This document shows positions 1 through 13,841 of a stretch of 64,000 nucleotides of DNA, piece by piece. How positions within the stretch are numbered: position 1 is the stretch's first letter; each line of letters starts with the position of its first letter. The translations under genes were made by a program, and so were the position numbers. Source of the DNA: Narcine bancroftii (lineage: Eukaryota); the NCBI RefSeq assembly GCF_036971445.1, contig NC_091469.1, positions 201,810,001 to 201,874,000 of the forward strand, read 5' to 3'. The notes beneath the pieces were generated by a model that was given only the letters and a program-made list of their open reading frames with translations, was not told the DNA's origin and searched no databases.

Positions 1-9
1 CAATGACTG

Positions 10-3000
10 TTATTCCTCTGGAATAGGCTGTAATTCAGGAGCGTGAAGAAGTCGGTGGAAAGGTGTACCTCCTTTTAAAGGGCGATGATTCAAATTGTCG
101 ACTGCCTGCTGCAGCACATGGCACCATCCCTTCTGGGTCCCCAGTGATGTTTCCAAACGAATTTGTTCCTTCAGTAAGCCGTTCATTTGTTCAACTAACC
201 CGGCAGCCTGCGGGTAATAAGGAATATGGTGGATCCATAAAATACCGTTGTCATTTACCCAATCACAGATTGCTTTCCTGGAGAAGTGCAAGCCATTATC
301 AGAGTGAATCTCCTCTGGAACATCATAACGATAAATCAAATGGTTTAGTCCTTGGATAGTGCTAGCTTGGTCAGCCATCTTGGTGGGAAAAGTAAAAACC
401 AGGCCCGAAAAGGTGTCAACCATTACTAGGATGTAATATTTACCCATACAGTCTAGCATGGGGCCTATATAATCAATTTGCCAGACCGCAGCTGAGTGAG
501 CACCCCGTTTTATTTGGCCATGTGGACCAGGTGGAATGGTATGGAACTTCACAAGCTGACATTCTGGGCATGTACGTACGACCATGCGGACATCATCCTG
601 ATGGACGGATAAAGCATGTGTACGGGACCACATAGCTGATCCCTTCTCCCCCAAATGACCACTCTGTTCATGTGCCCATCGAGCCAGGGGGACGGTATCA
701 GCACAGCTGATAGTGGCAAGCTGATCTGCTACTGCATTATGTTGAGCCATGTTAATCGCCATATTGGTATGGGCATAAACGTGATAAACGGTTATCTCAC
801 GATGGTGGGAAGCATCCCACAACAGCTGCCACAACTCTTTGCCCCATACTGGGCGGTCAAGTATCATCCAGTTGTTCTTTTGCAAATCAGGCATCCATAC
901 CACAAGTCCATTAGCCAAAGCCCAGGAATCAGTAAACAGGCGAAGAGGGTGATCATGGGGATCTAGTGGTAAAGTGACTGCCTTCAACTCAGCATACTGA
1001 CTGGAGCCACCATCCCCCTCCTCCGATAAGTGAGTTCCTGACCTGGGATGGTAAGCCACCTGTTCGTGTACGTGGCCCACCCCTTCAGGCCCTCTGGTCG
1101 CATGACTCTGAATATACCACTTCCATTTAACAATAGAAGACTGCTGAGCCCGCCCGATCTTTAGATTAGCATCATTAGCCAGGACCCAATTCATTATAGG
1201 AAGTGCAGGTCGCAATTGAATATCTGCATCACCTGTCATTCTTTCAGTCTCTAGCAGGGCCCAGTAACAGGCTACTAACTGTTGTTCAAAAACAGAATAA
1301 CGAGTGGCAGCCTCGGACATGGTACGTGACCAGAATCCCAGTGGGACTCGGCGACCCTCTTGTTTCTGCCAGAGGCTCCAGGAGGCCACATCATCAATAT
1401 AATGGTGAATTGAGAGGGAAGGCGATACTGGAAGGTGGATGAAGGTATACTGGCGCCCCTTCCAGGTAAAGGCGAACTGATCCTGTGAATCCTCAGCTAT
1501 AAGAATACTGAAGAAGGCGTTAGCGAGATCAATGACAGCATACCATGTTCCTGAGTTCCCAGTAGCAATGTTTTCAATAAGGGTGACAATGTCCGGAACT
1601 TCTGAAGCAAGTGGTGGGGCATGTTTGTTGAAAAAACGATAATCAACTGTCATTCTCCAGGAGCCATCTGGCTTCTGGACCGGCCAAACAGGGCTATTAA
1701 AGGGCGACGTTGCGGGCCTCACTACCCCTTCTTCTTGCAGAGCATCGATGGTGGCAGTAATCTCTTCCTGCCCCCCAGGGAGACGATATTGTGGAATGCA
1801 CACTGGTTTCATGGGGGCTGGCACCATCACAGGATCCCACTTAACCTGACCCACTACTAGTTTTTTTGTAATAGTTCGAATTCCAAATTCAAATCTCCCT
1901 TGGCTAGTATTAAGGGCCATACCGGCCAACATATTAATACCCAGGATACACTCGTCAGTAGCAGCCACCAGGGCATGTAACCAGACAGGGGAAGGGCTAT
2001 CACCCACCATGGCACAGACTTTTATTTCCTTTGCCAGGGTGACCGCTCCTCCCAACCCCTCTATTTGAAAGGCCGGTCCAGTCCAGAGGTCGGGATTGCC
2101 AGGAATCACCGAGTGCTCTGCACCGGTGTCGACCAAAGCCAAGTATTGGCGATCATTACCCCCACCCCAGTGGATTGTTAACGGTATGTAGGGCCGCGGA
2201 TCCCCGTGTGTGCGCCGTGTCTCGATGGAGTAGACACGGGAATCCTGCCCACACCTTGAGGCTTCAGAAGGGTTCGGGGGCTTCCAGGACCACATGCTAT
2301 TGTTATCTTTAAGAGCCTGTTTAACCCATTGTTTTACCTCATCATGAGTAACTGGAGCAGGAGAAGCCAGCTCGATAGAAGCAGCAGTGGGAGCAGAAAG
2401 CACAGCTGGGCCAGGAGGACTCAGCAGCTGGGGATGATGTTCCCCTGCTTTTTGCCTAAATCGATCTCCAATGGCAGCCAGCTCTTTTACAGAGAAATCA
2501 CGGATCATTGACTCCTTCCGACCCCTGTTCCCACTTTGACTCACAGGATCCTCCACCCAGTCTAGGGGAGGAGGTGGAGGCCATCCAACAGAGGGAGTAG
2601 GCCATAGAGCATAAGCAGGGGTTTGGGTATTTTCCCCTGGGTCCACATGGGAAACCGGGGTATCTATCCCTTCCATCTCTACCCTTACATCATCCCCCCT
2701 TCTGTCTGTTTGGGAAATCTGCTGCCTTATAGGGCGGGCGTGAACAGCAGATGGAGAGGGTAGTATGTTAGACACATGCTGAGGAGTATCTGCATTATTA
2801 CCATTGTCATTCCAGATATTCCCATCCCAATCCTCAATTACATCAGGATCGTTACCATTCCTTATCATGGCATGAATACGATATGGATCGGGTTCTACTC
2901 CATGCCTTTCCTTATCTGCACAGAGCTGCTGCCGGAGTTTAATATTACGGCAAATCATTTGGACATGCTTATCTTCCCATTCTTTGGCTCTGTCCTGACT

Positions 3001-3381
3001 GGTGCGAACAATCTCGCTCATCATGGAACAGCATTGTCGCAGGACTTCTAGCTCCTCCTCTAATTGCTTTCTTTTGCACTGAGATTCTACTTCTCTTTGA
3101 ATTAATTCTGCTTCACGCTGAACGGAGTGGCGTAATGCTGTGGCCAGCAACCAAAAACCATTCGTCAGCGTTCCCTTTTTATCAGGAAATTTACTTTCTC
3201 GAAGGAGAGTGGCAACCCGCTCTCCCAGAGGTGCACTTGATGAGTCTAACTTCTCATCCCAACTAATGGGTGGTCCCAACAAAGACAGGGTATTGGCCAA
3301 CATGCCAAACCCATCGTCTTTGGAAGTCCATCCAGGAATCAAGAACTGCTCAGGGCTCACCTCTTTCTTTCGGCGAAACAT
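10..3381 (-). mobile_element. ERV-L-like (class III) endogenous retrovirus gag-pro-pol, single open ORF with internal deletions
   Basis: ORF from ATG 3381 (MFRRKKE). Gag motif WDGNIW; protease IHWG..LVDTGA (DTG at 2122-2130); RT motifs SPFNSPVWPVQKPDGSWRMTVDYR, IDLANAFFSI and HYIDD; SIVKWKWYI; RNase H SSQYAELKAV and LFTDSWALANGL; integrase HHCC plus WQIDYIG / SDNG / GLVEQMN. These match HERV-L/MuERV-L Pol motifs as I recall them. Confidence 0.9.
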
Positions 3382-4288
3382 CTTGAGACCAACAGGGGAA
3401 GTGGGGGAGGGGGGTTGGCGGCAGTGGTGTGTGTGGCTGGTGTGGTGCTGCATGGAGGGGTGGCCTTGGGGGCCGGGGTCGACGTATGTGGGTCGTATTG
3501 GATGAGTGGGGGGGCGGGGGCAGGTTCATCTCTTAAGGCTGAAGCGGGCCACTGGTGGTTAAGGAGGCCCTGCGTGCCCCAGAGCTGCATGGGGATGAGG
3601 GTGTATGCCCGGTCAGCGTTGTCCTGTGTTGGAGGGTAGCGTGATGTGGTGAGTGCTTCTGCTGGTGCCAGGTCCCTGGTTAAGACAGTGTCCTCCCTGC
3701 CCCTGCCGAACCTAATGTAAGCGTAGTTATGGTTTGCATGAAGGAGGAACACCTGCTCCACCAGGGCTTCGGCCTTGTGTGTCCTTACATGCTTACACAG
3801 AAGCACCAGTCCCAGGGACGTGAGCCACACTGGGAGTGACATTCCAGTTGTCAACCTCCTGGGGAATGAGAACAGACGTTCGTGAGGGGTCTCATTGGTA
3901 GCCGTGCACAGCAGTGACCGAATGGCACCGAACGCCTCGGGAAGGGCATCCTGCCAGAATTCAACGGCCCACCCTTTTGACCTGAGAGCTAGGAGGACTG
4001 CCTTCCATACCACCCCATTCTCGTTTTCCACTTACCCGTTGCCTCTTGTACGTGGTGCAGCCTTTGGTTACCTGGAAGGCTCGGGGACCCACCTTTGACC
4101 GGAGTAGGACCAACCTCTTCCGATCGGAGTCCAGGATTTTGCCCTCATGTGCCTTGATGATTGCCTCGACCGCATGCTGCCAAATCTTGAAGCATGTCTG
4201 GGCTTCTGGATGGTGTGGGTTGACCTCGAGGCTCCCTGCGCACAGGAGTTTTTCCATGGCAGCCGTGGGAAAATTTTGTGGATTAAAT
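3382..4288 (-). mobile_element. Internally deleted Ty3/Gypsy retrotransposon: gag N-terminus joined to integrase C-terminal half
   Basis: MEKLLCAGSLEVNPHHPEAQTCFKIW (gag start) joins at ~4047 to RGNG*VENENGVVWKAVLLALRSKG...IRSLLCTATNETPHERLF...LLHANHNYAYIRF..GREDTV.TRDLAP (integrase core end and C-terminal region), then a Pro/Thr-rich tail. Confidence 0.8.
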
Positions 4289-4567
4289 TGTGGTCCGCTG
4301 TTAGACAGAATCAGACACACGCAAGGTAAAGACTGAACAACAGGCTTTAATCCACAAAAACCTCTGGCTGTGGCTGCAGCAACTCAGTATGAGGCCTCAG
4401 GAGGCTGGCACAGGCTTATATCCTGGAGGGTGATTGACACCCGATCGGGTGGGGCTTGATCCATTCAGGCTGACTGATCGGCATCCGGCCAAGTGTTGTC
4501 CATTCCCCTTACACTTCTGCAGGTACAGAGGTTGCTCCCTGCAGTAGGCTGGTGGTGTACCATCACA
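4289..4567 (-). repeat. 5' LTR of Gypsy element
   Basis: On the minus strand it begins TGTGAT and ends ACCACA, with a TATAA box (~4416-4420) and ATTAAA (~4346-4351). It lies immediately upstream of the gag start and abuts a CR1 fragment. Confidence 0.7.
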
Positions 4568-4865
4568 GTAGACAGTCAACACCTTTTTCACAGGGCAACA
4601 ATGTCAATTACCAGAGGACATCTATTCAAAGTTAGGGGAGATGTCAAAGGTAGGTTTCTTTTTCACAGAGAGTGGTGGATGCCTGGAATGCTTTGCCGTG
4701 GGTGGTGGTGGAAGCTGGTACAATGGAGACATTCAAAAGATACTTTGATAGTGTGTGTGTGTGTGAGGTAGGGATGGATTATATTTTTGAAAAGGAGGTT
4801 TACAAAGGTCAGCACAATATCATGGGCTGAAGGGCCTGAATTGTGCTGTAATGTTCTATGTCCAA
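4568..4865 (+). mobile_element. CR1-like LINE 3' fragment
   Basis: TRGHLFKVRG...RFLFHREWW residual RT C-terminus, followed by a typical 3' tail GGGCTGAAGGGCCTG...TGTTCTATG. Confidence 0.65.
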
Positions 4866-5667: not shown

Positions 5668-6587
5668 CAGTGATTTTCAAACTTTTTCTGTTCACTCACA
5701 TACCACCTTAAGTAATCACTTTGCCATAGGTGCTCTGTGATTAGTAAGGGATTACTTTTTTTTAAATTTTTTTAATTTTTCACACTATAAACCAAATTGA
5801 TCAAGATACATACATTTTCCCTCTTGAACATATACAGTGTTGTTTTCTCCCCCCCCCTCCCTCCTCCCCTCCCTCCCTCCCTACCTCCCCTCCCATTCAT
5901 TTAAAGTTCAGAAAATGGGATACATTAAACCCGTCAAACAATGTTGTCACTCAATAAAGACAAACAAGAAATTCCACTGAGTCAGTTCTTTTCATTCTCT
6001 TCTCCTTCTGTCATTTTAGGTGGTAAATGTCCCCGGTAGGTTTTCTCTATTATATTTCATGTATGGATCCCATATTTGTTAAAAAATGTTGTAATATTAT
6101 TTCTTAAATTATATGTTATTTTTTCTAATGGAATACATTTATTCATTTCTATATACCATTGTTGTATTCTCAAGTTATCTTCTAATTTCCAGGCTGTCAT
6201 AATACATTTTTTTGCTACAGCTAGAGCTATCCTAACAAATCTTTTTTGTGCACCATCCAAATCAAGTCCAAATTCTTTGTTTTTTATGTTACTTAGGAAG
6301 AAGATCTCTGGGTTTTTTGGTATATTGCTTTTTGTGATTTTATTTAATATCTGGTTTAGATCTTCCCAAAATTTTTTCACTTTCTCACATGTCCATATTG
6401 CATGAATTGTTGTTCCCATTTCCTTTTTACAGCGAAAACATCTGTCAGATACTGTTGGGTCCCATTTATTTAACTTTTGAGGTGTAATATATAGCCTGTG
6501 TATCCAGTTATATTGTATCATACGTAACCTCAGTAAGGGATTACTTAAGGTGGTATGTGAGTGGGGGGAAAAGATTGAGAACCACTG
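5668..6587. mobile_element. hAT/Charlie-like MITE interrupted by an L1 insertion
   Basis: Inverted termini CAGTGATTTTCAA ... TTGAGAACCACTG and internal inverted arms CACTCACATACCACCTTAAGTAATC / GATTACTTAAGGTGGTATGTGAGTG. Another terminus copy starts at 6700. Confidence 0.65.
5758..6531 (-). mobile_element. 5'-truncated L1-clade LINE with 15-bp target site duplication
   Basis: ORF2 C-terminal zinc knuckle (HRLYITP...CFRCKKEMGTTIHAIWTC), G-rich 3' UTR, A-rich tail. AGTAAGGGATTACTT is duplicated at 5743-5757 and 6532-6546. Confidence 0.9.
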
Positions 6588-6729
6588 CCCTTGACCCAAT
6601 TGTTACTGAAATATTTTGCTTGAGAAAAATTGTCATTGGCCCGTTTCCTTTGGAGTTATGAAACCATGTACATAACGAGTCAGTTAAGTATGATTAAAAC
6701 AGTGGTTTTCAAGCTTTTTTTTCCCATTC

Positions 6730-7720
6730 TGTGGTAAACCACTGCATATATGTTTGGATGTGTTAGGACACATCCCTTGCTAACTGTGCCTGAAGCTTCT
6801 CCCACTGACCCCTGAATAAAGGCAACTATGCCACAGCACCCTCCTCAGTCCAGGACAGTCGACCAGCATGGACAGACCTCCATTCTGTTTCTCTACAACT
6901 TCTAGTCTTTGCAGTTATTAATGGTGCATCAGTTTTATTCACAACAATTTTTTGATAATGGAGCAGACTCTGAAGCCAGAAAAGCTGGACCTCGAACCAT
7001 AATCACTTGATGCATCCAACAGCATCAAACTCTGGCTGTGTGGCTTCAAAGCGTTCCTGCAGGTTTCCTCTACTATAATTCGATCAGAGAACGACAGGGT
7101 GCAAGTACTGTATTCCTGGGTCGGGCCCCTAGGTACACTTGATGATCAGGGACGCTGAGTCTTATCCAGCGGTGATGGACATACTGAAAAGCCAGTTCCG
7201 GAGGAAGGTAAAAGAGGCACCTCCTGGCTACCCGAAAACAGAAACCTGGGGAATCGAGCGCCGAGTACCTTTGGACCCTGTGAGCTCTTGGATGGGCCTG
7301 TGACTGAAAGGCCATGACGGCTACAGTGAACATGGATGACTTGATCAGAGACACCTATGTCATGGGCCTAAGATCTAGCTACATCCGGCAGAGACTGTTG
7401 GAGCAGAGTGAGCTTAATTTACAAAAGACAGTCAAGCTAGTGGACAGGCTAGAGGTGGCCCTCCAAAACATAGATGCAAACTCAGCTGATAACAGAGCTG
7501 GTTCGTGGTTACCGTGGGTACCACCATCTTGGGAAGTGGGAGGACCTCCATGTCCTGTCAGCGACTCAACCATGGCCGCGGTACTCTGCAGGCACCCGAA
7601 GTGCTACTTCTGTGGCCTGCACAAACACCTGAGGAAACGCAGTCCAATGAACGACGTGGTTTGCTCTAGCTGTGGGAAGAAAGGACATTACGTAAAGGAT
7701 TACCCTAGCAATTGTTCCTT
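6730..7720 (+). mobile_element. Second Gypsy element fragment: LTR (6730-6931) plus degraded gag
   Basis: TG...CA LTR; ATG 6958 MEQTLKPEKLDLEP* resembles the first element's gag start; IRDTYVMGLRSSYIRQRLLE and degenerate zinc knuckles CYFCG..H / CSSCGKKGH; contains stops and frameshifts. Confidence 0.8.
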
Positions 7721-7724
7721 TCTC

Positions 7725-8240
7725 AGAATCAGAATTTATTGTCATGAACAAGCCATGAAATTTGGTGTTTTGCATCAGTGTTATAGTGTATTCATATTAT
7801 AACCATCTTATGACTTAACTATAACAAAAATTAAAATACTAGTGCTCGAAAAGTAAGGCAGTGTCTTTGGTCCATTGATTATTCAGGAATCTGATGGCGG
7901 CGGGGAAGAAGCTGACCTTGTGCCTTTAAGTGCTTGTCTTTAGACTCCTGTACCTTTTCCCCACTGATAGCAGAGTGAAGAGGGCATAGCCTGGGTGGTG
8001 GGGTGGGTGTCTTTGAGGACAGAGGCTGCTTTTTTTCAAGATACCACCTCAAGTAGATGCCCTTGATGGAGTGAAGTCTGCAGGCCGAGTTAACAACCTC
8101 TGGAGTTTATTCTTGCCCTGAGAGTTGGTGCCTCCGTACCAGTCAGTGATGCAGCCAGCCCCAATGCTCTCCATGGTACACCTGTAGAAGTTTACAAGAG
8201 TCTTCGAAGACATACCGAATCTCCTCAGACACCTGTACAT
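7725..8240 (-). mobile_element. Rex1/Babar-like LINE 3' fragment
   Basis: LRRFGMSSKTLVNFYRCTMESI.GCIT.WYG motif of the RT C-terminus; tail similar to other copies in the window. Confidence 0.7.

Positions 8241-9473: not shown

Positions 9474-13841
<4,368 letters not shown>

Follow-up and report, generated by a model that had tools for sequence, protein, structure and literature searches.

The window, that is, the whole 64,000-nt stretch of Narcine bancroftii DNA analysed here, contains near its beginning a decayed, chromodomain-free copy of a Ty3/Gypsy element, which lies on the minus strand and continues beyond the window start into the locus numbered L051. The following features are distinguished:

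4567..4289, minus strand: 5' LTR of the Ty3/Gypsy element, with TG..CA ends, 279 bp (about 292 bp in most family copies)
L051 8314-8025, about 1.7 kb before the window start: 3' LTR of the window copy, 92.8% identical to the 5' LTR
4415..4420, minus strand: TATA box TATAAG (TATAA is present in 36 of 39 family 5' LTRs)
4386..4392, minus strand: Initiator (Inr) match, with the predicted start at A 4390, 30 nt after the TATA box
4346..4359, minus strand: LTR arm, predicted end of the self-primer, with 13 conserved pairs and a variable 14th; ATTAAA at 4351-4346
4343..4346, minus strand: predicted cleavage step AAA/GCC (RCC follows the arm in 21 of 27 tabulated rows)
4305..4324, minus strand: GT-rich U5 stretch, by its sequence a likely downstream poly(A) element
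4288, minus strand: one-base spacer that separates the LTR end from the primer-binding site (PBS)
4274..4287, minus strand: PBS, complement of the LTR arm (exact within the window), without TGG
4035..4257, minus strand: gag start (ATG 4257) and gag remnant; the window copy is deleted from gag to integrase
3394..4048, minus strand: integrase 3' remnant, of which 3519-3394 is duplicated (126 bp, 100%) beyond the nested insert
1..3393 and past the window start, minus strand: nested young ERV-like gag-pro-pol element of 4,806 bp, without its own 5' LTR and PBS

The LTR ends at 4289 and 4567 are also met by the loose ends of public contigs. These contigs, from three runs, display no start, end or poly(A) tail of a transcript and so give no evidence on transcription. 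From the GT-rich U5 stretch the poly(A) site would be placed roughly 12–20 nt after the arm.

The nested ERV-like element (window 1-3393 together with L051 8587-10000) sits inside the Gypsy copy, is flanked by a perfect 126-bp target duplication (window 3394-3519 and L051 8461-8586) and lacks exactly the 5' LTR and the 18 nt that hold a TGG-type PBS. Its family is young and numerous, with 3,052 first-look candidates, about 100% identity in all 40 that were scored, and TGG after a 2-nt spacer in the five copies examined. The nested copy looks like a one-ended aberrant integration of incomplete DNA, or less probably an assembly artefact, and it lies outside the priming structure.

A search of the host genome returned 4,679 first-look candidates for the Gypsy family, of which 40 were scored, and 38 of the 39 other matches were taken with downstream DNA. 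The resulting set comprises 39 copies, the window's included; they are the best matches to a query that contained the PBS, so the set leans towards intact copies. Both LTRs were found in 28 of the 39, with an exact 5-bp target site duplication (TSD) at the LTR ends in 17 of these 28 and a TSD matching at 4 or more of 5 positions in 24. Full-length copies measure about 4.9 kb and have the order gag-PR-RT-RH-IN (family ORFs and P0006). The TG..CA LTRs, the TSD and the polypurine tract directly before the 3' LTR are all present, as in Ty3/Gypsy elements, and the best PDB match to the family RT is Ty3 RT (E 2e-48), while no chromodomain was detected in four long homologs (Pfam, E up to 0.5) or in the precomputed domains of 120 matches. 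Among named proteins, the closest homologs belong to sharks and rays, followed by those of nematodes, a cnidarian, a mussel, an insect and an echinoderm; no relatives were found in IMG/VR, and the protein atlas matches carry generic RT names alone. As the RT catalytic motif (family ORFs, e.g. L060:4337-5593:-, and P0001-P0120), 91 of 120 homologs have YxDN and 21 have YxDD, so that, as read from these translations, its second aspartate is often asparagine across the clade. Several contigs filed in bacterial MAGs (L151-L157) bear animal-type Gypsy elements, which suggests host contamination of the bins. Discordance between 5' and 3' LTRs was considered as a sign of intermolecular strand transfer and dropped, because the variation in most columns resembles CpG decay in a family that spread in a burst; the two LTRs of one copy gave 92.3% and cross pairs 91.3%.

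The first-pass annotation of this DNA had reported that the PBS position holds, instead of the TGG of a tRNA site, a perfect 14-nt complement of the LTR poly(A)-signal region, one base past the LTR end. Both points hold: positions 4287-4274 and 4359-4346 of the window are exactly complementary, the 14-mer has two occurrences and no more in the 64,000 nt, on opposite strands (4274-4287 on the minus and 4346-4359 on the plus strand), and the LTR end, from which base 4288 separates the PBS, is set by the TSDs. Shuffled windows gave a mean of 0.12 matches at up to one mismatch. When the leader was folded, as had been proposed, the stem appeared in both the minimum free energy and the centroid structure (z -2.81, equalled by none of 200 shuffles). 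Within the family the 13-pair stem is perfect in 23 of 39 copies and has at most one mismatch in 36; the 14th pair is present in 27 copies and the 15th in two, which makes the conserved family duplex 13 bp long. TGG stands at the PBS in none of the 39.

A search for compensatory changes between the PBS and the LTR arm had also been recommended. An alignment of 40 homologs led to 80 metagenome and 7 MAG-contig loci, and gag searches added further families from the host genome itself. In this way 27 family rows were tabulated, and two of them (L117 and L080) were dropped for having no CA at the position used, leaving 25 families; the true stem of L080 was later located elsewhere by a gag-anchored scan and is identical to that of L081. 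The 25 families have 25 different PBS 13-mers. Measured against the window family, both sides differ in 98 cells and pairing is broken in only 6, with 208 cells staying the same; the families share ancestry, so that the cell counts do not stand for independent events. Pairing is found in 24–25 of 25 families at arm positions -1 to -12 and in 22 at -13 and -14, and falls to 6–7 by -19 to -22. The PBS matches its own LTR over 13.9 nt on average, compared with 4.27 nt for the LTRs of other families and 3.07 nt for shuffled LTRs; only 8 of 702 cross-family pairs reach 10 or more nt, all within two groups with similar arms.

Since 16 of the 27 row positions had been picked by an inverted-repeat finder, an additional scan was anchored only on the gag start. 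From 87 loci, 46 had the gag N-terminus and 42 of these enough upstream DNA, many being copies of a few families. In the register of CA plus one base, 12–13 of 13 bases are paired at 33 of the 42 loci, compared with 6 of 1,232 random places; the nine misses score 7–11, several look damaged or truncated, and L144 has no stem. In an RT-RH tree of 29 rows, all clade members, stem-bearing families stand on both main branches, and RT identity to the query is 42–69% among the families where it was measured. Another family of the clade in the same genome (L158-L165) is very young, with identical 240-bp LTRs and open ORFs of about 1,460 codons; a 14–15-bp stem is present in all eight copies, and its older sub-families show compensation at -9, -11 and -13. 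According to these data the stem is a real, conserved and covarying structure of the whole clade.

The register of the stem is equally constant. Its PBS side begins at the second base after the LTR (a 1-nt spacer) in 24 of 25 families; where a 3' LTR copy fixes the LTR end (11 families), the start is at +2 in ten and at +3 in one. The arm lies 30–77 nt before the LTR end, has AAA at its end, and the next three bases are GCC or ACC in 21 of 27 rows; AAA at -1 to -3 and G at -10 (24 of 25 families) are near-invariant. The 3' end of the stem is sharp, because in most families no pair forms between the spacer and the first base past the arm. Taken over all families there is enrichment for a helix that starts directly after the arm (sum 95 versus 74.9 ± 5.2, reached by none of 500 shuffles), while that of the window family is weak, at 2 bp counted from +1 against a shuffle mean of 3.6.

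With regard to transcription, the arm had been placed some 30–45 nt downstream of the TATA-predicted start, and the present positions (TATAAG 4420, Inr A 4390) give 31–45 nt. The TATA-Inr pair recurs at 30-nt spacing in 30 of 39 window-family copies and at 31–34 nt in three other host families; the start is thereby predicted 45–58 nt upstream of the arm end in four of six host families, and there the primer would be internal, unlike that of Tf1. The earlier claim of a difference from Tf1 thus stands for these four, in which the arm is predicted well inside R; in the 21 outside families, a search of at most 170 nt gave no TATA-Inr pair. Many outside families have an Inr-like TAGT across -12..-9, and their start could thus be nearer to the arm.

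The fixed register together with the missing TGG suggests self-priming, and the most likely reading of these sequences is a self-priming site of new geometry in a widespread animal Gypsy clade. The 14-mer would be the PBS of elements that probably prime with their own RNA after a Tf1-like cut at AAA/RCC, to which we assign a probability of about 0.7. Folding of the 5' leader would pair the arm with the PBS over 13–14 bp, usually stacked on a small hairpin that starts with RCC; the element RNase H would cut AAA/RCC, as in Tf1, and leave a free 3'-OH pointing into U5; RT would then copy U5 back to the cut, and the approximately 12–20 nt from the cut to the poly(A) site would serve as the repeat for first-strand transfer. 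In the host-genome families the primer would be a capped 45–58-nt 5' piece, paired at its 3' end only. For the 16 of 25 families whose arm bears a hexamer, concealment of the 5' poly(A) signal would be an additional benefit of this fold. All steps beyond the pairing are inferred. An invariant register is understandable when the 3' end of the primer sets the end of the DNA copy, a constraint that a hexamer-hiding hairpin does not have. The proposal of tRNA-independent priming is therefore well supported by family covariation and fixed register, while the mechanism remains a prediction. A Tf1-type primer here would bear a long unpaired 5' tail, a problem for plus-strand synthesis or transfer. 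Moreover, a change at -14 is common to both LTRs of four copies and is not mirrored in the PBS, which indicates that simple copying back from a longer primer does not account for the PBS.

The long predicted tail and the unmirrored change leave room for priming from the 3' end, in which the R arm at the 3' end of the same or a partner RNA pairs with the PBS and is cut at AAA/RCC. RT would copy U5 and all of R to the cap, the product would be transferred to the leader portion of the 3' R, directly upstream of the product's own primer, and RNase H acting on the template would trim the primer to about 13–15 nt. Such a route would avoid the long unpaired tail and explain why pairing stops near -14/-15 despite a longer 5' leader; if the TATA-Inr start is right, the arm is within R and both RNA ends carry it. 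For the same reason the statement that the stem can form only at the 5' LTR was too strong, as the arm is also present in the 3' R and could pair with the PBS at long range. Yet the ensemble strongly favours the local 5' fold (P 0.85–0.99 in 25 families), which would keep the PBS engaged; the closing of the stacked hairpin is often further out than +15, close to the probable poly(A) site or beyond it; the loop is conserved at a short 30–77 nt; and the papers covered yielded no precedent. Priming from the 3' end is therefore considered unlikely, and the same doubt applies to its wider form, a Tf1-independent self-priming throughout this non-chromoviral, animal-wide Gypsy clade by a poly(A)-signal segment of the 3' R cut at AAA/RCC on a circularised RNA. 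If true, it would be an undescribed route of LTR-element reverse transcription, in a clade whose RT motif is mostly YxDN.

It is a little less probable still that the stem serves only for concealment of the 5' poly(A) signal, or for control of translation or of packaging, with priming by something else. HIV-1 and MoMLV bury the 5' hexamer in poly(A) hairpins, but they prime with tRNA and the partner strand of the hairpin is not the PBS; hexamer burial is common to these hairpins and the present stem, which uses the PBS as partner. Here AATAAA or ATTAAA is inside the paired arm in 16 of 25 families, the window family included, and a variant of the hexamer occurs in six more; the gag ATG follows closely in most families. 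On the other hand, nine arms have no canonical hexamer, three families have none of the variants tested, and in three of the 25 the canonical hexamer lies downstream, outside the stem, so occlusion cannot be the general purpose. Neither does it give a reason for a start one base past the LTR end, where no other primer site is present. Suppression of the 5' signal, which had been offered as a second function, is thus possible in the window family but not general, and is a side role at most.

Priming by a host RNA (the 3' end of a tRNA, a half-tRNA or another small RNA), with the LTR match incidental, appears very improbable. The near-invariant arm positions are what a shared primer would give, and the tRNA comparison that had been recommended was partial; nevertheless the best match to the PBS was 5 nt among 28 distinct host tRNA genes covering 11 amino acids, and Rfam gave no match over 4200-4620 at E up to 1. 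Furthermore, each PBS matches its own LTR and not those of other families, several different PBS sequences coexist in one genome, TGG is missing, and the covariation argues against half-tRNA priming. Lastly, a chance inverted repeat or a misplaced LTR end is practically negligible, since, although the sequence is A/T-rich and two of 100 window shuffles reach two matches at one mismatch, it is refuted by the TSDs, which fix the boundary, and by the gag-anchored scan.

Self-priming has been described for Tf1/Tf2 of Schizosaccharomyces pombe, Tj1, Tosmo1-3 and the Tf1/sushi chromoviruses (PMC7175516, PMC10085805, PMC4600332). In Tf1 the PBS pairs with the initial 11 nt, and the RNase H cut falls between nucleotides 11 and 12 (PMC7175516); an extra helix of the three-duplex "pretzel" model adjoins the predicted cut (PMC10085805). 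The Tf1/sushi group resembles the present clade in being Ty3/Gypsy, in having no tRNA site and in a PBS by the 5' LTR that is complementary to the element's own LTR RNA; a helix adjoining the predicted cut may also be common to both, one such flanking helix being supported across the families here. In contrast, the present clade has no chromodomain, its duplex is 13–14 bp rather than 11, its RT motif is mostly YxDN, only one flanking helix is supported, arm and poly(A) hexamer overlap in 16 of 25 families, and for four host families the arm is predicted inside R, 45–58 nt from the cap. Because of the missing chromodomain, the clade is not placed in the Tf1/sushi group, although its working is regarded as Tf1-like.

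Outside chromoviruses, self-priming has been predicted from PBS/LTR complementarity for the plant elements TAR, Houba and Osr-1 (Copia), besides the plant Gypsy element Tcn1, and the consulted part of that source does not describe an overlap with the poly(A) signal (PMC6317226). TAR, as a Ty1/Copia element, places the mechanism outside chromoviruses, in plant lineages unlike the animal clade considered here. The dictyostelid Skipper and SM-Tcn1 have neither TGG nor LTR complementarity, as far as the available sections report (PMC5006619, PMC2864245).

Among animal Gypsy elements, Mag A/B/C, Cigr-1, CsRN1 and MolGy share with the present clade short LTRs, a single gag-pol ORF, a length of 4–5 kb and a 5-bp TSD. 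The double zinc knuckle is presumably Mag-like and the 4.2-kb size presumably Cigr-1-like. The present LTR start TGTGGTG fits the CsRN1 motif TGTGGYG (PMC3601003, Table 3, as available), the clades being compared by published description and not by reference sequences. In the literature searched, as far as it was accessible, neither self-priming nor a PBS is described for the Mag, Cigr-1, CsRN1 and MolGy clades; the available text of PMC2774666 has nothing on Cigr, PBS or self-priming, and motif searches in the literature and in the searchable supplements of two papers yielded nothing naming the clade. Self-priming in a non-chromoviral animal Gypsy clade was likewise not described in the full texts covered (including PMC3601003, PMC6238403, PMC8556966, PMC5445492, PMC7472051, PMC2999396 and PMC10680173), a scope that excludes most subscription papers, Butler et al. 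2001, the Levin papers, Repbase and GyDB, and this negative result is no proof of novelty.

So far self-priming has been described mainly for Tf1/sushi chromoviruses (the fungal/fish branch) and a few plant lineages, while the present data point to the same logic in a large non-chromoviral animal Gypsy clade, with thousands of candidate copies in the Narcine bancroftii genome and relatives in several phyla. Its geometry is different, with a longer duplex, a conserved AAA/RCC, the poly(A)-signal overlap and probably an internal primer. If self-priming is true for these elements, tRNA-free priming arose or survived more widely than thought; control by 3' tRNA fragments would not reach them, and LTR annotation that relies on the PBS would overlook them. 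With its conservation, AAA/RCC provides an exact and testable predicted cut site.

Several other features of the window may be mentioned. A second, older member of the same clade lies at about 6700-7800 on the plus strand, with the PBS kept at 6933-6946 and the matching LTR arm deleted; its relatives L171-L174 keep both. The exons of an HSP70-family gene with a KDEL end, probably BiP/HSPA5-like, occupy 9594-13841 on the plus strand, and a GC-rich tandem array with a 28-nt period extends from 19641 to about 22000. At 5684-6572, inverted repeats of 38 nt (87% complementary) surround a stretch of 813 nt with a fragment whose translation looks like the end of LINE ORF2; a LINE piece may here have split a small DNA transposon.
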